Assembly: GCA_964385825.1 (NCBI GenBank) | Contig: CAYLPX010000003.1 | Coordinates: forward strand, 37,559 to 101,558 | Direction: 5' to 3' | Length of the DNA stretch: 64,000 bases | From: an uncultured Candidatus Saccharibacteria bacterium | GTDB taxonomy: Bacteria > Patescibacteriota > Minisyncoccia > Phycocordibacterales > JAKFXT01 | In this document: in pieces, positions 52,901-61,247 of the stretch | Layout: each line of letters starts with the position of its first letter | Position numbering within the stretch: position 1 is the stretch's first letter | The notes under the pieces: generated by a model | The model's database searches: none | What the model saw: the letters and a program-made list of their open reading frames with translations, nothing else | What the model was told of the DNA's origin: nothing | Translations under genes and position numbers: made by a program

Positions 52901-53950
52901 TTAAAGATCATTAAGTGCTCGCGCCTCTTGAACATGAGCGCGATATCCTTCAAATATTTTCTGCATAGCGACAGTCATGGTAACTTCAGGTTTCCACCCA
53001 AGTTCCTTCTCTGTATTATCTATTTTAGGAACTCGATTTTTAACATCCTGATATCCCTTACCATAAAAACCTTCAGGAGTTGTTACGATAATTTTTACTT
53101 TATGGGAATATTTTTTATACTCTTCGTATTTATTAGCGAGAGTGAGCATAGTTTCGGCCAATTTCTTAATTGACCAATTATTTTTAGGGTTTCCGATATT
53201 ATAGATTTTGCCCGATGCCACCCCACCCTTGTTTTCAATAATTTTCATAAGTGCAGAAACGCCATCATCAATATAGGTAAAGGCTCTTTTCTGCAGGCCG
53301 CCATCAACTAATTTAATATTTTCGCCACGTACTATCTGCCCTAAAAACTGAGTGATAACTCGTGAACCACCTTCTTTCTTTGTCGAAAGCCTATCAAGCC
53401 CAACTCCAATCCAGTTAAAAGGACGGAAGATAGTGAAATCAAGTCCACGCTCAATACCGTATGCCCAAATAACTCTATCTAGCATTTGCTTACTGCAAGA
53501 ATAAATCCAGCGCTGCTTGTCGATCGGACCAAGTACAAGTGAAGATTTGTATGGATCAAACTCTTTATCTGGTGACATACCATAGACCTCTGAGGTAGAT
53601 GGAAAAATAAGTCGCTTCTTATGCTTTGCCGTCATACGAACAATAGGCAGGTTCGCTTCAAAATCAAGCTCAAAAGTTCGCAGCGGCTCCTTCACATAAC
53701 TCATGGGAGTAGCAATAGCAACAAGCGGTAACACCACATCGCCCCATTTAATCTGCTTTTCTATCCAAGCGGCGCTTTTAGTGATATCCCCCTTTACAAA
53801 TTCAAACCTTTTATGTTTTAAAAATTCTTTGACACGATCGGACTCTAGATCCATACCCCGCACCTGCCAATCCGTGGTTTCTAGTATGCGCTTAGTAAGA
53901 TGATGCCCTATAAAGCCGTTTACTCCCAAAATTAATATCTTTTTAGCCAT
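52901..53950 (-). CDS. UDP-glucuronic acid decarboxylase, ArnA C-terminal-domain-like (UDP-4-keto-pentose / UDP-xylose-apiose synthase family)
   Basis: Rossmann [10 protein letters not shown] and near-identity to the ArnA decarboxylase core ([24 protein letters not shown] vs E. coli [24 protein letters not shown]). Confidence 0.7.
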   Translation of the reverse strand: [349 protein letters not shown]

Positions 53951-53997
53951 GCAGAATACTGTAACAAAATTAAGGTGGTTATGCTATGTAAACCCAT

Positions 53998-54025
53998 GAA
54001 AAAGGCCGGATGTCACCGTCCGGCC
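53998..54025 (-). terminator. Rho-independent terminator of the island-1 ORF
   Basis: ggccggatgtcaccgtccggcc (7-bp perfect GC stem) preceded on the plus strand by gaaaaa (a T-run on the minus strand), 18 nt after the ORF stop. Confidence 0.5.
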
Positions 54026-54042
54026 GACCAGCCCCACAACGT

Positions 54043-54264
54043 TCATCCCAGGGCTGCTGCTGTGGCATCCTCGCGGAGACCATGTTGCCTGCCGTATTCC
54101 TCATGCTGGAGGCTACGGTCTTTCCGCGCCTCCCTGAGCGCCAAGAGGAACGCCGTCCTATCTGCAAGGGTCCCGAACTTCAGGGTAATCCTGAGACCGG
54201 TTTCCTCCACAAAGTCGACATCCGGCGGCAAGTTAATCACCGCGGGGCCAGTTTCTTGGTTCAT
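54043..54264 (-). CDS. Small GC-rich ORF P1 (73 aa, unknown function) with strong SD
   Basis: MNQETGPAVINLPPDVDFVEETGLRITLKFGTLADRTAFLLALREARKD... Upstream is CCTAGAGGAGAGTGTCATG (GGAGA, 6 nt, ATG). Codon usage (CTC, CGG, GCG, CCG) is unlike neighbouring genes. Confidence 0.4.
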   Translation of the reverse strand: MNQETGPAVINLPPDVDFVEETGLRITLKFGTLADRTAFLLALREARKDRSLQHEEYGRQHGLREDATAAALG

Positions 54265-54299
54265 GACACTCTCCTCTAGGGTGGGTTCTGATCAATACA

Positions 54300-55151
54300 C
54301 TACAATAAAAGTTCGCTTTTGACTATAGAGACTAATTTTTCTGCCGCTTCCATGTCATTCGCTTGTGGGGATACCTCTGCTATATTATTTTTTACAAAAT
54401 ATTCACCCGATACCCCACTAGCCTTAGGACTACTAGCCAGATACACACTAGTTTCTGCCCCCGCTTTTGGAGAAATAGTAGTAAGAGAAAACAAACCCCT
54501 CACTACTATGTTTGAATTTCTCATTCCCTCTTTTAAAAGATTAGTACGGACTACTCCAGGGTGGAGTGCATTAACTGTCACACCACTTTCCTTTAACTCT
54601 TTAGCAAAGATTTTTGTCCAAAGAATGAGTGCGAGTTTTGAATTACTATAAGCCCTGTAGTGATCAAAATGTTTCCTACTTTCTAAATCACCGAGATTAA
54701 TTTCGCCCTGTGCATGCATAGTAGAAGAAACATTAATAATACGTGCTGGTGCCCCCGCTCTTAAAAGAGGTAGCAGAAGGTTTGTTAGCAGGAATGGGGA
54801 AAGAAAGTTGACCTGCCAGTTAAGTTCATGTTTGTCTCCGGTTTCAATACGCTCTTGCGGCATAACTCCCGCATTGTTAATAAGAACATTGAGTTGTGTA
54901 TATTTTTCTTTAAACTCCTCAACAAATTTCCTTATTGAAGCAAATGAGGCAAGATCTACTAAATAGTATGCTACGTTTGCATTCGGCATTTCTCGCTTCA
55001 TTTCTGTTAGTACACTCTCACCGTCCTCAACGTTGCGCGCAGTAAAAACAACCTGGGCTCCGAGTGTAGCAAGCCCCCGTACCGTTTCTTTACCGATGCC
55101 ACTTGTTCCACCTGTAACAAGGCATACCTTCCCTTCCATACTGTTATTCAT
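54300..55151 (-). CDS. Short-chain dehydrogenase/reductase (SDR) family oxidoreductase
   Basis: TGGTSGIG cofactor motif, NNAG, and YxxxK (YSNSK). Confidence 0.8.
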   Translation of the reverse strand: MNNSMEGKVCLVTGGTSGIGKETVRGLATLGAQVVFTARNVEDGESVLTEMKREMPNANVAYYLVDLASFASIRKFVEEFKEKYTQLNVLINNAGVMPQERIETGDKHELNWQVNFLSPFLLTNLLLPLLRAGAPARIINVSSTMHAQGEINLGDLESRKHFDHYRAYSNSKLALILWTKIFAKELKESGVTVNALHPGVVRTNLLKEGMRNSNIVVRGLFSLTTISPKAGAETSVYLASSPKASGVSGEYFVKNNIAEVSPQANDMEAAEKLVSIVKSELLL

Positions 55152-55183: not shown

Positions 55184-56605
55184 TCACTCTTCATCTTCCA
55201 AAATAGTATATTGATCTACCTCCTCACGAGTACGTCTCACGTACACCACAGCCCCTGAAACCACTCCACAAAAAGCCAATACTCCCATGAGCCAAACCCA
55301 TGTTTTAGACTGATCTTTTTTGGTCTCTTTATCTTTGGGCACTACCTCTTGTGACTCCAGTGCATTTACTACAGTTGCTACATTACTTGAAGAAATAGTT
55401 TTACTTTTAGCTTGTATTTTTGCTAAAGCATTAGAAGTATTCGCTACGGATGCTTGTATTCCTATAGTTCTACTCGGCACAGGAAGGCCACTCGCATAAA
55501 AAAGAGTAGGTGTCATGTTTCCTAAAAACTGACTAACACTGTTGGCAATTTTTATAGTCTTATTTGCCCCAATGAGCGTTCCACTCGGGACTAAGAACTT
55601 TGTATCGCCCGCTTCTAATTGGAAGCGTGAAATATCAAGTTCATTTGTTCCATTATTTTTTATCTCAGTATACCCCTCTTTCCCAGGTATAAACTGTGAA
55701 ATGCTAAGTGTAGGATCTACTACTTTTATGAGTACCCTATCCCCCTGCGAATATTCGCCCGATGTCACGTCAAGGGTAACAATATACTCTCCCAGAAAAT
55801 GATACGTGTGAGCTACCTGCCTTCCCTCCCTAACTTCCCCATCACCAAAATTCCAAACAAAATGGGCATTTGGCAACGGTTCTTTATTAACCCCAAGTGC
55901 GCTGCCCACAAAAACAGTCTCGCTCCCTAAAAGAGTGGACCTATCCTTGCCTGCATCAGGAAAAATTTGTTGTTCGGTTTTATAGTGGCTAGCAACAACT
56001 TCACCACTTCCCCCGCCTAAAGAAGTTGAGTTATTGCTTGAGGTACTGGTAGTATCAGTAGAAGTTGTAGTAGTACTCGCAGGCGGAGTTATACCGGGAC
56101 CTGAAGTATTCATGGCTCCAGGAGTTGGGTTCCCACTTTTAAAACCGCCCCCATTTCTATTCAAACTCATACCATCCCCCGCGCCACCCGTATCACTACT
56201 ATATGAAACTGTATCCATATCAGCATCTCCACTACGAAGTACCAATGTCTCGCCAGTATTTGAAAGCGAAAAAGAACTATCAAAAATAGTTCCGCTAAAC
56301 CCAGGATTATCTGCTAGAAACTTAGACGGGGTATCGGCTACCACCGCATAACTATTCGCAGGGACTACCGCAGAACCCTGGCTTACTTCGAGCTTATGAT
56401 TAGTTTCTGCCTCACGCAGTGTCCACTTAGACATATCTACCGCCTCTCCTCCATCATTGTAAAGCTCTATCCACTCTCTGCCGGTGTCAGTCCCCGGAAG
56501 ATCGTACATGATTTCATTAATCAAAACACTCGCTCCGGCAAACTTGAAAAACAAAAAATAACAAAGAAAAATAGAGAATACGCGTATACCCTTAATTAGT
56601 TTCAT
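55184..56605 (-). CDS. Surface protein with lamin-tail domain (LTD) and PKD domain, N-terminal signal peptide and C-terminal TM anchor
   Basis: LTD signature VLINEIMYDLPGTDTGREWIELYN. PKD-like FVWNFGDGEVREGRQVAHTYHFLGEYIVTLDVTSG. Ser/Thr-rich linker. C-terminal TM WVWLMGVLAFCGVVSGAVVYV. Start set at Met 56605, which gives a canonical signal peptide; the ORF-track start is 56653. Confidence 0.6.
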   Translation of the reverse strand: MKLIKGIRVFSIFLCYFLFFKFAGASVLINEIMYDLPGTDTGREWIELYNDGGEAVDMSKWTLREAETNHKLEVSQGSAVVPANSYAVVADTPSKFLADNPGFSGTIFDSSFSLSNTGETLVLRSGDADMDTVSYSSDTGGAGDGMSLNRNGGGFKSGNPTPGAMNTSGPGITPPASTTTTSTDTTSTSSNNSTSLGGGSGEVVASHYKTEQQIFPDAGKDRSTLLGSETVFVGSALGVNKEPLPNAHFVWNFGDGEVREGRQVAHTYHFLGEYIVTLDVTSGEYSQGDRVLIKVVDPTLSISQFIPGKEGYTEIKNNGTNELDISRFQLEAGDTKFLVPSGTLIGANKTIKIANSVSQFLGNMTPTLFYASGLPVPSRTIGIQASVANTSNALAKIQAKSKTISSSNVATVVNALESQEVVPKDKETKKDQSKTWVWLMGVLAFCGVVSGAVVYVRRTREEVDQYTILEDEE

Positions 56606-58487
56606 CATGCTCAACATGAAGCATAGCGCGAAGTTTATCTTCAGGAATTTCATTCACCACTCTTCCTACTTCTTCTTTAGAAGTAGTTAAGTTTTCCCTA
56701 ACTGGTTCTTTAGTTTCTTCTCCACTCTCCCCATCATCCATAACTATTTCTTCCTTTTTCTTAAGTGACGCCAGAACTGCAGCGAGAGCTTGCTTATTAG
56801 CGGTATTAGTATTCTGTCGGCGAGAACCTTCTTCCCTCCGCCCTTCCACAGGGGGCCGATCTCTTTTCACCTCTTCTTTTTTTTCTGCCCTGGGTACTGA
56901 TACTTGAGGCACAGCTTCCGGCGCCTTATGCGTCTGTGTTTCTTTAACCACAGGCTTCTCCTCTTGGTGTTCTTCGGGAATAGTGGCCCCTACAACACTT
57001 GCCAACGTTTGACGAAGCCCTTCAAGATGAAGATGTGAGCCAACTTCCTTTATTTTTTCCTCAACCACATGACTTAAGGTTTCGTGGTTTTCCTTTTTTG
57101 GTCCTGCTTTTCTATCCTCTCTTCGTGGATGCTCGCGCCCCTCCTGTTGTCGCTCCTCAAATTTATTCTCCTTCTTCTCTCCCTTTGGCGGTACGCTTGT
57201 ACTTAATGTCTGCTTTACAATATCCTCCTCCACGACGCTACGCTTTTCACCAAACTGCTCTTGTGAAGTGCGAATTACTTCTTCTTTATATGAAATAACT
57301 GGCTTTGCAACTGGGGGCATAGTAACAGCAGAAAAAGGTTGCGAGCCCACTCCATCAATCATGAGCTTGAGGTATATTTGCGCGAATCCAAGATTCACAA
57401 AGTCTTCTGCGATAAATGTGGGCATGAATTCTTTCTCGAAAATCTCTGCATCGAATGGTCCCACCCGAAATACAATCATGGTCCCCACGTTACCAAAAAT
57501 AGCTGCTCGTACCTCCTCTGACATTTGTTCAATGTATTGATGCGCCACTGTGAGGTTTAATTTGTACTTACGAGCTTCTGAAAGAATGTCAGCAAAACTC
57601 TCATTAGCAAAAGACTGGAACTCATCTACATAGAGATAAAAATTAGGAAGTCGTGCCATCCGTGATTCTGGTACATCAGCGCGACTCATAGCTGCTAGAT
57701 AAATCTTAGTAATGAGCATGCTTCCCAAAAGGTTGGCATTGCTCTCTCCTACACGACCTTTAGAAAGATTGATGATCAGAATTTTTTTCTCGTCCATCAT
57801 CCTTCGAAGATCAAAAGAAGATTGTGGCTGGCCAATAATATTACGAATGAGAGGATTACTGGTGAACTGCCCCACCTTGTTTTGAATAGCCGGTGTCGCT
57901 TCTGCGGCAAATCGATCGGTGTACTTTGCAAACTCATCTACCCAAAAAGACTTCACTGTCGGATCAGTTATATTATCCACCACTTTTTTACGGAAATCCT
58001 TGTCAGAGAGCATCTTGTTAATAGCAAGAAATGTAGCTCCTGGATACTCAAGTAGAGCAAGGAGTGTATTGGAGAGAATGTACTCCATACGAGCACTCCA
58101 AGCATCCACCCAGATTTTCTTAAAGGCGCTCATAAGCCCCGATACCACTAAATGTCGCTTATCTATACCAACATCTTCCATCACATTGAAAGCAATCGGG
58201 TACTCCATATCAAAAGGAGCAAAGTAGAGTACGTCCTTGATGCGGTGCTCTGGTACGTAATCAAGTAGGAGTTCTGCTGTCTTGCCGTGTGGATCTATAA
58301 AAGCCAGCCCCTCACCATTCTGAATATCTTGAATGGCCATGTTTTCAAGAAGTGTAGACTTCCCCATCCCCGTCTTACCAATAACATACGTATGACGAGT
58401 TCTGTCTTTCGCTTTAATACCAAAAGGTACTCGACGATTGCGAGCGTCTGTAGTTGCAAAATAGGTTATGCGATTTTCATCAGGCAT
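56592..58487 (-). CDS. TraG/TraD/VirD4-family (type IV secretion coupling-protein-like) soluble P-loop ATPase with long charged C-terminal tail
   Basis: Walker A GKTGMGKST and IDPHGK (cf. TrwB/TraD ..DPKG..). Walker B YLYVDEFQ. About 250-aa E/K/R-rich low-complexity C-terminus. Start set at ATG 58487 (MPDENRITYF...); the longer ORF-track extension runs into GC island 2. Confidence 0.5.
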   Translation of the reverse strand: MPDENRITYFATTDARNRRVPFGIKAKDRTRHTYVIGKTGMGKSTLLENMAIQDIQNGEGLAFIDPHGKTAELLLDYVPEHRIKDVLYFAPFDMEYPIAFNVMEDVGIDKRHLVVSGLMSAFKKIWVDAWSARMEYILSNTLLALLEYPGATFLAINKMLSDKDFRKKVVDNITDPTVKSFWVDEFAKYTDRFAAEATPAIQNKVGQFTSNPLIRNIIGQPQSSFDLRRMMDEKKILIINLSKGRVGESNANLLGSMLITKIYLAAMSRADVPESRMARLPNFYLYVDEFQSFANESFADILSEARKYKLNLTVAHQYIEQMSEEVRAAIFGNVGTMIVFRVGPFDAEIFEKEFMPTFIAEDFVNLGFAQIYLKLMIDGVGSQPFSAVTMPPVAKPVISYKEEVIRTSQEQFGEKRSVVEEDIVKQTLSTSVPPKGEKKENKFEERQQEGREHPRREDRKAGPKKENHETLSHVVEEKIKEVGSHLHLEGLRQTLASVVGATIPEEHQEEKPVVKETQTHKAPEAVPQVSVPRAEKKEEVKRDRPPVEGRREEGSRRQNTNTANKQALAAVLASLKKKEEIVMDDGESGEETKEPVRENLTTSKEEVGRVVNEIPEDKLRAMLHVEHDETN

Positions 58488-58550
58488 GAAAAAAAGAAAT
58501 GAACGTAAGTACCTAAAGTATAGTCTAATTTGAAGTAGTTGTCTCCAAAT

Positions 58551-58576
58551 GAAAAGCCCGCAGCCGAAGCTGCGGG
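58551..58576 (-). terminator. Rho-independent terminator of the island-2 ORF
   Basis: cccgcagccgaagctgcggg (8-bp perfect stem, cgaa loop) preceded on the plus strand by gaaaag (T-run on the minus strand), 18 nt after the ORF stop. Confidence 0.55.
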
Positions 58577-58594
58577 TTCCGAAACACCAAGGCC

Positions 58595-58819
58595 CTACTG
58601 CGGCCGCATGGGAACGTACGCGCCGTTCCTGAAACACCCCTTCGTGAAATTCGTCACCGGCATTGCGCGGAGCTCCGCCTCGGCAATGCCAGCCGTCGTC
58701 GGATTACCGCTGAACCGCCGCCTTGCCCGGCGCAGCGCCACCTTCTTCTTGTGGAGCGTAGCGCCATTCACCGGCCGCCGGTTTTGCTTTCCGTCGTTTC
58801 CAGGTTGCTTCAAGGGCAT
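58595..58819 (-). CDS. Small GC-rich ORF P2 (74 aa, basic, unknown function) with strong SD
   Basis: MPLKQPGNDGKQNRRPVNGATLHKKKVALRRARRRFSGNPTTAGIAEAELRAMPV... Upstream is CCTCTAGGAGACTTACATG, the same GGAGA-N6-ATG geometry as P1. Confidence 0.4.
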   Translation of the reverse strand: MPLKQPGNDGKQNRRPVNGATLHKKKVALRRARRRFSGNPTTAGIAEAELRAMPVTNFTKGCFRNGAYVPMRPQ

Positions 58820-58901
58820 GTAAGTCTCCTAGAGGAACAATGCAAAACCCCCATGGTTTCGCATCGCGATATGGTAGCAGAAGACCTACACCTACACAAG
58901 T

Positions 58902-59872: not shown

Positions 59873-60550
59873 TTATTGGAGTCCCTCAACCATTACCACA
59901 AACTCCCCTTTTTGTTTTATTTCATTATCCTTGAAATAGGTAAAAACTTCTTCAGCACTTCCACTAACTATTTCCTCAAACATTTTTGTGAGCTCTTTAG
60001 CCACTACTACTTTTCGAGTAGGCTCTACTGCTTCCTCTAATTTTTCTAATGTTTTTATGAGACGATGCGTTGATTCATAAAAAGCAACCGTTCTCCCTGA
60101 TATTGCTATTTCTTTAAACAATGTTTCTCTCCCTTTCTTATGTGGTAAAAATCCCAAAAAAAGAAATTGATCTGCCGGAATGCCCGAAATAGATAGTGCA
60201 CTGATAAGCGCTGAAGGTCCGGGGATAACTACCACTTCAATACCGGCCTCGCGAGCTGCCGCCACAAAACGAAATCCTGGATCAGAAATCGCAGGAGTCC
60301 CCGCATCAGTCACCAGGGCGATACTTTCATATTCATCAAATAGCCCAGTAATCTCTTCGCTTAATTCTCCCTCTTTGTGCGCATCCAATCTTTTGGTTTT
60401 TGTTTTGATTTCATAGCGATCTAACAACTTCTTCGTCACTCGTGTGTCTTCGCAGAGTATAAGATTTACCTCCTTAAGCACACGAAATGCCCGAAGAGTA
60501 ATATCCTCCATATTCCCTATAGGGGTCCCAATTACATAAAGTCTTAACAT
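59873..60550 (-). CDS. rsmI: 16S rRNA (cytidine1402-2'-O)-methyltransferase
   Basis: Tetrapyrrole-methylase fold with the RsmI N-terminus (YVIGTPIGNMEDITLRA...LCEDTR). Confidence 0.85.
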   Translation of the reverse strand: MLRLYVIGTPIGNMEDITLRAFRVLKEVNLILCEDTRVTKKLLDRYEIKTKTKRLDAHKEGELSEEITGLFDEYESIALVTDAGTPAISDPGFRFVAAAREAGIEVVVIPGPSALISALSISGIPADQFLFLGFLPHKKGRETLFKEIAISGRTVAFYESTHRLIKTLEKLEEAVEPTRKVVVAKELTKMFEEIVSGSAEEVFTYFKDNEIKQKGEFVVMVEGLQ

Positions 60551-60555
60551 CCCCG

Positions 60556-60583
60556 AACTCTATACAAATAAAACAGCGGGGGC
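60556..60583 (-). terminator. Rho-independent terminator of P3a
   Basis: gcgggggcaagcccccgc (7-bp G/C stem) with a T-run on the minus strand (plus-strand aaataaaaca), 13 nt after the stop. Confidence 0.5.
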
Positions 60584-60595
60584 AAGCCCCCGCAC

Positions 60596-60859
60596 CTATG
60601 GAGTAGCATCGAGCTCCGCCCTCATTCCGGACGATAACCCCCCACTCCCACCGCCGTTCATGAGCCTCCCCCAATCCATAGCAAAACCATGAGCTACGAA
60701 CTTATTGCCATGTGTTTGATCAAAAAACTTTCGAACAACAGTGTAGAGGGGCGAAGAACAATCAAGAAGCGCGTAGCCAGACCCGCGTTCGTCATCGCAG
60801 ATCCGCACTAAGTTATAGGGAGACTCCGGTCCCCATGAGATTCCTGGAGCATTTTTCAT
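60596..60859 (-). CDS. Small GC-rich ORF P3a (87 aa, Gly-rich C-terminus, unknown function)
   Basis: MKNAPGISWGPESPYNLVRICDDERGSGYALLDCSS...GGGSGGLSSG. A G-rich SD-like stretch (AGGGGAACAGCATG) precedes the start. Confidence 0.35.
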   Translation of the reverse strand: MKNAPGISWGPESPYNLVRICDDERGSGYALLDCSSPLYTVVRKFFDQTHGNKFVAHGFAMDWGRLMNGGGSGGLSSGMRAELDATP

Positions 60860-60968
60860 TGCTGTTCCCCTGCAAAATTATCTTTTTAAAAATTAGCACA
60901 TGAAAACATAATTGACCACAAGAAGGAGTGCCCAGTATAGTATGAATCCAGTTCTTTTGGAGATTGCA

Positions 60969-61196
60969 ATGGAAGAATCCATCCTCGCCGACAGGGTAAC
61001 CCCCTTTCAGCGAAAAGTGGCAAACCTCGCCGAACTCACCGTGTTTTTTGGTGGAGCCAAGGTTTGGACAGCGTGGGAGCCAATCCTTGAGGGCCTTGCG
61101 CTTTCACATGGCGTCGATCAAGAAGAAGCCTCGGCCTGTTTCTTCCTAGCGGTCGCAAGCTTCAGCGAAAACGGCCTCCCCGACGAAGCCCTCTAG
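60969..61196 (+). CDS. Small GC-rich ORF P3b (75 aa from MEESIL..., unknown function)
   Basis: Start chosen at ATG 60969 because it is preceded by GGAGATTGCAATG, the same GGAGA-N5-ATG geometry as P1 and P2. The ORF-track start is 60912 and an alternative ATG lies at 60942. Confidence 0.35.
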   Translation: MEESILADRVTPFQRKVANLAELTVFFGGAKVWTAWEPILEGLALSHGVDQEEASACFFLAVASFSENGLPDEAL

Positions 61197-61215
61197 GGCT
61201 TCTGCCGCCCAACCT

Positions 61216-61247
61216 GCGCCCGAGAAACTCGGGCGCTTATTACTTTA
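61216..61247 (+). terminator. Rho-independent terminator of P3b (abuts the murC stop)
   Basis: gcgcccgagaaactcgggcgc (9-bp perfect stem) followed by ttattacttta. Confidence 0.5.

Follow-up and report, generated by a model that had tools for sequence, protein, structure and literature searches.

A GC-rich island beside a surface-glycan gene cluster is probably an ancestral small-protein gene of Parcubacteria

The 64,000-nucleotide (nt) stretch of contig CAYLPX010000003.1 analysed here, hereafter the window, carries a short GC-rich island between a gene for a short-chain dehydrogenase/reductase (SDR) and a gene for an ArnA-like decarboxylase. This island holds a minus-strand open reading frame (ORF) of 73 amino acids (aa), termed P1. 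Judged by its sequence signals and its conservation, P1 is a genuine protein-coding gene and an old resident of this locus, where it appears to be ancestral, and it belongs to an unnamed Parcubacteria small-protein family. The GC island is the coding sequence itself and not a foreign insert. The explanation that best accounts for the whole, and which we hold to be rather probable, is that of a genuine gene of a small family, ancestral in its position after the SDR gene, with a binding-partner mechanism as its most likely mode of action. The finding is real and largely ordinary: a conserved hypothetical small-protein gene with unusual, family-wide GC-rich codons.

The P1 coding sequence (CDS) occupies positions 54043..54264 of the minus strand, from an ATG start to a TGA stop, and its predicted product includes the peptide MNQETGPAVINLPPDVDFVEETGLR. 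The ORF is present as the initial annotation had it, with an identical translation. A spacer of 35 nt (54265..54299, minus strand) separates the SDR stop from the P1 start. The Shine-Dalgarno (SD) tract read from the sequence, AGAGGAGAG (54269..54277, minus strand), ends its GGAG 6 nt from the ATG, which bears out the distance first given. A terminator scan places an intrinsic terminator at 53999..54025 (minus strand), formed by a GC stem-loop (54004-54025) and a T5 run (53999-54003). It reads GGCCGGA-CGGTGACA-TCCGGCC, i.e., a 7-bp stem and a loop of 8 nt, followed by TTTTT. This element had been described as a 7-bp perfect GC hairpin with a T-run 18 nt after the stop; the stem length and the T-run stand, but six of the seven pairs are G-C, and the hairpin begins 17 nt past the stop codon. 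Both the SD site and the terminator are real and recur in relatives. The GC content is 0.59-0.62 across 54000-54300, compared with ~0.41 for the whole window. The island, first delimited to 53975-54300, is GC-rich over ~54004-54290, a stretch that consists of the CDS and the terminator at ~60% GC, whereas 53975-54003 is AT-rich. The flanking genes, SDR and ArnA-like decarboxylase, are as described.

The locus can be compared in twelve divergent Parcubacteria lineages: the window, the locus of protein P0002 (lineage L091), and ten further SDR-homolog contexts (L094, L096, L098, L099, and L180 to L185). A 67-73 aa ORF directly follows the orthologous SDR gene in 11 of the 12. SDR homologs with 50-62% identity are numerous in Parcubacteria/Paceibacterota, which also marks the genome of the window as one of the Patescibacteria of the Candidate Phyla Radiation, and a small ORF stands immediately 3' of the SDR gene in nine of the ten that were checked for context, with lengths of 71 aa (L094 and L181), 69 aa (L096, L180, and L185), and 73 aa (L098 and L099), as well as 67 aa (L182) and 69 aa (L183) after correction of the start. 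In the automated calls, this small ORF is 15-17 codons too long in L182 (2845-3099) and L183 (2856-3107), and is uncalled in L099 (907-1128). The identities of the flanking proteins to those of the window are low (50-62% for SDR, 59-70% for GT4, and 75-79% for the decarboxylase), and the lineages are therefore well separated. The initial annotation had seen an insert of ~300 bp filling the gap between two host genes, and had named conservation of the region in relatives as the outcome that would speak against it. The comparison of orthologous intergenic regions for presence or absence gives that very outcome, a region of similar length being essentially conserved. With the gene ancestral at the locus, the insert reading cannot stand.

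The closest relative of P1 is P0002. This 68-aa protein is the one true homolog that phmmer retrieves among 1.84 billion representative proteins, with 41% identity to P1 between Met1 and the C-terminal region (E=1.9e-4). Its gene is found on three ENA contigs and lies, as in the window, between SDR and ArnA-like genes, the products of which share 50% and 76% identity, respectively, with those of the window. In the DNA alignment of the two small genes, the SD sites and the start codons are aligned, and the single indel, of 6 nt, is in frame. The P1 protein itself is found on 16 contigs from several samples of one population. Ten of these contigs were compared and share at least 99.97% identity with the window, so that variation within the population is uninformative on constraint. 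A word-indexed search of 5.8 billion proteins returned only P1 with P1 as the query, and only P1 and P0002 with a profile of the two. A metagenome scan with the same two-sequence profile found nothing, and a scan with an SDR alignment, which captured generic SDR motifs, retrieved mostly unrelated SDR genes; the one close relative among them, L100, breaks off too shortly after the SDR gene.

The other members are more distant. A profile of P1, L091, and L182 aligns with a profile of L183, L180, L096, and L181 in hhalign over 62 columns, with 96.7% probability and E=4e-10. A hidden Markov model (HMM) from which P1 and L091 were left out retrieves L091 at E=9e-5, with P1 next, above all 15,774 background ORFs. 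The protein of L185 (Candidatus Wolfebacteria, OGM92826.1), which was outside the training set, matches the family profile at E=8.6e-19. Tests with leave-one-group-out HMMs gave no significant result for six members, and significance was reached only once L180, L182, and L183 had joined as bridging members. Profile comparisons tie P1 to seven ORFs in all, and those of L094, L098, and L099 are equivalent by position only. P1 has the traits by which membership is recognised: a length of 67-73 aa, a GGAG 5-9 nt upstream of the start, and a terminator within ~20 nt of the stop. Furthermore, its gene arrangement, with the small gene adjacent to SDR, is that of L091, L094, L096, L098, L099, L180-L183, and L185. 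Among database entries, OGM92826.1 (UniRef100_A0A1F8DWJ4, from Candidatus Wolfebacteria RIFCSPLOWO2_01_FULL_47_17b, A2935_03845) occupies the same slot after SDR and falls in the same size range. MDD2657722.1 (Candidatus Pacebacteria) also shares slot and size, but belongs to the L094/L098/L099 subgroup, for which the sequence link to P1 is not significant. The Parcubacteria small proteins have in common with P1 the pattern AV(I/V)NC-P ... hxhxF ... A--F--AL-DAKLA ... Y-(K/R)-G, the GGAG, and mostly a clear terminator. Their identity to P1, however, is just 13-41%, and the databases label all of them "hypothetical protein", with no family model.

Several lines of evidence indicate that P1 is protein-coding. 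The ratio of nonsynonymous to synonymous substitution rates (dN/dS) is 0.22-0.32 among L094, L098, and L099, and 0.45 between P1 and L091. A GGAG or GGGAG is found 5-9 nt before the ATG in all eleven family members. Strong terminator hairpins (-15 to -19 kcal/mol) lie 3-20 nt past the stop in eight of ten relatives, with differing stem sequences, and the small-gene terminator and the promoter-like block downstream of it (see below) can be aligned between the window and its relatives. A chance ORF in stop-poor, GC-rich DNA might be suspected from the fact that three frames, the sense and two antisense ones, are open across the island in the window. Yet the sense frame is the only one open in all 10 members tested, and the full-length homolog in conserved synteny, the evident purifying selection, and the conserved SD site make such an accident hardly credible. 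In the five alternative frames, stops are as numerous as synonymous shuffles predict; the plus-strand ORFs of the window (115 and 89 aa) are therefore artefacts of composition, as the initial annotation had supposed, and those frames hold stops in relatives. An overlapping or antisense gene was considered and rejected on the same grounds, the alternative frames being no more open than in shuffles and interrupted by stops in other members.

In AT-rich genomes, structured RNAs classically show up as GC-rich intergenic islands closed by a terminator, and the island resembles this signature. It might thus be a structured non-coding RNA in which the ORF is incidental, and the copy of the window does fold slightly better than shuffled sequence (z-score -2.2). 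Averaged over 10 members, however, the folding z-score comes to -0.15 on the sense strand and -0.83 on the antisense strand, and RNAalifold yields 0 pairs on 11 members. Rfam gives no match at gathering thresholds, and only chance-level matches at E<=10. Substitutions are concentrated at synonymous sites (dN/dS 0.22-0.45), and reading frame, start codon, and SD site are all conserved. A structured RNA with covariation, which had been named as the other outcome that would overturn the first interpretation, thus leaves no signal, and a coding signal is found instead. For practical purposes, the structured-RNA reading is largely refuted, and we give it very little credence.

The order of genes at the locus is conserved: a TraD/VirD4-like ATPase, a PKD/LTD or HHH-PKD surface protein, the SDR, the small gene, its terminator, a promoter, a variable gene, and two GT4 genes. 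In the window, the SDR-family oxidoreductase (Pfam adh_short), which directly precedes the small gene as in the other lineages that carry it, is encoded at 54300..55151 (minus strand). The decarboxylase gene (52901..53950, minus strand) encodes a stand-alone bifunctional UDP-4-keto-pentose/UDP-xylose synthase resembling the C-terminal part of ArnA, which matches NCBIfam NF008872 with 597 bits (cutoff 294). The small gene is the constant element of the arrangement, and the gene downstream of it is a variable slot. This slot is filled by the UDP-xylose synthase in the window, L091, L094, and L184, and by a 167-177 aa cupin in L096, L098, L099, L180-L183, and L185. Among species-representative genomes, the best matches of the decarboxylase belong to Betaproteobacteria, with 65-70% aa identity, almost as close as the Parcubacteria relatives (75-79%). 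This suggests that the ArnA-like decarboxylase, the gene of which has a GC content at third codon positions (GC3) of 0.35, is the horizontally moving part, having passed between phyla into the variable slot and since ameliorated to the host GC. No P1-like ORF accompanies the betaproteobacterial matches to the ArnA-like protein, the only ones returned by the genome-collection scan. The idea that the island is left over from betaproteobacterial donor DNA preceding the ArnA-like gene was also considered, and was rejected because neither blastn nor HMM gave a match.

The four genes 5' of P1 in the ORF list are all on the same strand, with small gaps between them, and a promoter scan finds no consensus promoter in the 35-nt spacer between SDR and P1. 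Because of this tight packing and of the spacer devoid of a promoter, P1 is probably co-transcribed with SDR, as the last cistron of a TraD-like/LTD-PKD/SDR/P1 operon that would end at the 54004-54025 hairpin. The SDR-small gene spacer measures 52-71 nt in several relatives, and an extended -10-like TGnTAnnnT can be read in it in five of them (L096 and L180-L183), where the small gene may have a promoter of its own. Between the small-gene terminator and the next gene lies a non-coding block of ~45 nt, the conservation of which exceeds that of the flanking proteins (~60% identity). This promoter-like block spans 53955..53998 (minus strand) in the window, where it aligns with TTTGGTTATAGATAGTAATTACCAGGGATTTTGATACTGTA of L094, L098, L099, L182, L183, and L185, and ~2215-2260 in L098. 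It holds an extended -10-like TGTTACAGT (53958-53966) located 7 nt from the ArnA-like ATG; the pattern across relatives is an extended -10-like TGnTACnGT very near the start codon. The block is predicted to be the promoter of the downstream gene and, since the -10-like element is so near the start codon, the resulting mRNA would be leaderless or nearly so.

The P1 protein would be soluble; it has no hydrophobic segment and is slightly acidic on balance, with 12 D/E for 9 K/R. In an alignment of 10 members, F30 is invariant and F39 nearly so, and P14 and G62 are invariant in the eight securely linked members; the conserved positions are residues of the hydrophobic core. AlphaFold2 models were obtained in two independent runs, for P1 (strands 15-19 and 25-29, helix 33-61; predicted local distance difference test score (pLDDT) 64, predicted template modelling score (pTM) 0.41) and for P0002 (strands 16-20 and 23-27, helix 31-58; pLDDT 68, pTM 0.47). 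The two agree in topology and suggest, with modest confidence, a β-hairpin leading into one long, amphipathic helix, with a disordered tail that is acidic or ends in glycine.

As to its role, P1 would be translated from its own SD site on a transcript shared with SDR and ending at the GC hairpin and T-run, and its product would bind a neighbouring surface-glycan enzyme, be it the SDR, the downstream sugar-nucleotide enzyme, or a GT4 enzyme. The fixed position of the gene in a surface-glycan cluster is the reason for this tentative proposal, by analogy, of an accessory subunit or regulator acting on an adjacent cell-surface glycan enzyme through protein-protein binding; it is possible, though we would not call it likely. 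A precedent is HfiA of Caulobacter crescentus, which binds and inhibits the glycosyltransferase HfsJ, thereby controlling surface polysaccharide synthesis (PMC6530869). The likeness is confined to functional analogy: the small protein HfiA stands alone, and P1, also small, sits in a GT4 and sugar-nucleotide cluster, but the hfiA gene lies outside the operon of its target and is under heavy transcriptional regulation. MbtH-like proteins are another case of obligate binding partners, of adenylating enzymes: ~70 aa long, they comprise a small β-sheet, a helix, and a disordered tail, and are encoded in biosynthetic clusters. P1 resembles them (PF03621) in its size, its β-then-helix order, its disordered tail, and its location in a cluster. 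In contrast to them, it has neither a Pfam match nor the MbtH tryptophan signature, and the context of MbtH is that of non-ribosomal peptide synthetases, not of glycans.

The main functional rival of the enzyme-partner proposal is a small DNA-binding regulator, a β-strand/helix dimer that would bind the adjacent conserved block and control the downstream glycan genes. The predicted β-hairpin followed by a helix is in line with this idea, as is the unusual conservation of the 45-nt non-coding block immediately past the terminator, which has a palindromic core, GTAATTAC, in most relatives. P1 shares with the ribbon-helix-helix (RHH) proteins Arc, CopG, and ParD a small size and a β-strand of alternating hydrophobicity leading into a helix (RITLKF-GTLADRTAFLLAL). 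RHH proteins, however, have a β-α-α topology, whereas P1 is predicted as β-β-α, with a hairpin and one long helix (pLDDT 64-68, which makes this a weak test). None of 10 members matches an RHH, AbrB, or helix-turn-helix model of Pfam, even at E<=10. Moreover, acidic residues outnumber basic ones in the protein, conservation of the palindromic core does not extend to the window, and the block is adequately explained as a promoter consisting of an UP-element and an extended -10. A DNA-binding role is thus unlikely.

Several observations weigh against the interpretation of P1 as an ancestral gene of a single family with a binding function. P1 alone reaches only E=0.3 against a profile of the other members, and its membership rests on the bridge provided by P0002 and on synteny. 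The subgroup of L094, L098, and L099 gives no significant hhalign match to the rest (P=0.002-0.014). Its members are probably positionally equivalent and very divergent, but they could represent an analogous replacement instead of true homologs. In L184, the small ORF is lacking, and the SDR stop is followed by an AT-rich spacer of ~128 nt and then by the decarboxylase gene. Within this spacer (2847-2973), a GGAG-ATG followed by an ORF of eight codons persists, perhaps left behind by a deletion. The AlphaFold2 models derive from two-sequence alignments and are of low-to-moderate confidence. Sequence searches of Pfam, NCBIfam, PHROG, PADLOC, and the PDB return no significant match, those of Pfam being negative for P1 as for the plus-strand ORFs, and Foldseek finds nothing at E<=0.001 in the PDB and BFVD. 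Finally, the composition of P1 has the profile expected of a recently acquired gene. The GC contents of its three codon positions (GC1/GC2/GC3) are 0.67/0.44/0.67, compared with means of 0.53/0.36/0.359 in the 53 long ORFs of the window, which for GC3 amounts to a z-score of 8.4 (host standard deviation 0.037). None of the 13,518 in-frame windows of 74 codons inside these long ORFs has a GC3 of 0.60 or more. With this count and this z-score, the anomaly is not due to chance.

This atypical composition is the strongest argument for a foreign cassette, either a recently inserted, horizontally acquired mini-gene or a xenologous displacement from a Parcubacterium of higher GC. The sharp boundaries of the GC-rich stretch, which coincide with the SD-to-terminator unit, would fit such a cassette, as would the lack of the small gene in L184. 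A second GC island in the window, holding an ORF termed P2 (GC3 0.78), is absent from L094, the only relative covering the region, and insertions therefore probably happen in this genome. Against a foreign P1 stand the homologous or positionally equivalent ORF that 11 of the 12 lineages have in this slot, and the terminator and promoter block that align with those of relatives. No marks of a mobile element accompany P1, be they flanking direct or inverted repeats, an integrase, or, in tblastn against phage and plasmid collections, any match. The nearest relative is just 41% identical, with saturated synonymous sites, and no plausible donor is sampled. In L180 and L091, the untranslated regions are AT-rich, and only the CDS is GC-rich. 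High GC3 is moreover found family-wide, and the foreign reading would therefore need many independent recent transfers. On these grounds, we regard an acquired cassette as improbable, and the ancestral gene remains the preferred reading.

In all eleven lineages, the small ORF has a GC3 within 0.49-0.72, which does not track that of the flanking genes (0.32 to 0.70). It lies above that of the host in nine of the ten lineages compared, and likewise in L185. The excess over the host amounts to +0.33 for the window, against +0.24 for L180 and +0.19 for L091, and is close to zero in GC-rich hosts. Since synonymous sites are saturated between members (proportion of synonymous differences 0.5-0.8) while GC3 stays high, it is the composition that is held, and not the sequence. 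Candidate causes of the excess are repeated transfer or xenologous replacement, GC-biased gene conversion, and selection at the mRNA level. Gene conversion is a candidate because the gene adjoins the boundary where the cupin/UDP-xylose synthase cassette swaps. A bolder view, which we consider doubtful, is that GC-rich codons are actively maintained across Parcubacteria whatever the GC of the genome, and that the protein is a regulator of surface-glycan synthesis specific to the Candidate Phyla Radiation (CPR). If GC3 were indeed maintained whatever the host GC, a force would act on the nucleotide sequence itself, for which an RNA-level role of the mRNA is an alternative candidate.

As this case illustrates, a GC-rich island in a CPR genome that is otherwise AT-rich need not be a structured RNA or an insertion; the one described here is a small gene under conservation, of a kind that gene callers sometimes miss (L099) or mis-start (L182 and L183). 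It defines a Parcubacteria-specific small-protein family tied to an SDR, sugar-nucleotide, and GT4 cluster near TraD-like and ComEA/PKD-like genes. The cluster region likely shapes the cell surface of contact-dependent episymbionts, and a small regulator or subunit encoded there, if true, would be a testable handle. The mismatch between the GC3 of the gene and that of its host also offers a small, clean case for asking what keeps synonymous composition off mutational equilibrium.

Besides the P1 locus, other small-gene islands are found in the window. The second GC island (58540-58830) carries the P2 ORF (58819..58595, minus strand), which encodes a very basic protein of 74 aa and has a GC3 z-score of 11.4. 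It has an SD site (CTAGGAGACTTAC-ATG), and a GC hairpin (58553-58580) followed by TTTTCAT. P2 has no Pfam or NCBIfam match and no homolog in any of the relatives' loci compared. P2 is missing from L094, where 7 nt separate the end of a small membrane-protein gene from the start codon of the TraD-like gene. It has the look of a genuine insertion specific to its lineage. The gene call made for this island in L002 is on the opposite strand. The TraD-like ORF of the window (56592-58637) starts at a GTG (58637) inside the island, and its conserved N-terminus, MPDENRITYFA..., starts at 58487. A further spacer, between rsmI and murC (60550-61240), is 690 bp long and GC-elevated. It holds two divergent small ORFs without Rfam or NCBIfam match, one of 87 aa (60859..60596, minus strand; GC3 0.49) and one of 84 aa (60942..61196, plus strand; GC3 0.58), each followed by a GC hairpin and a T-run.

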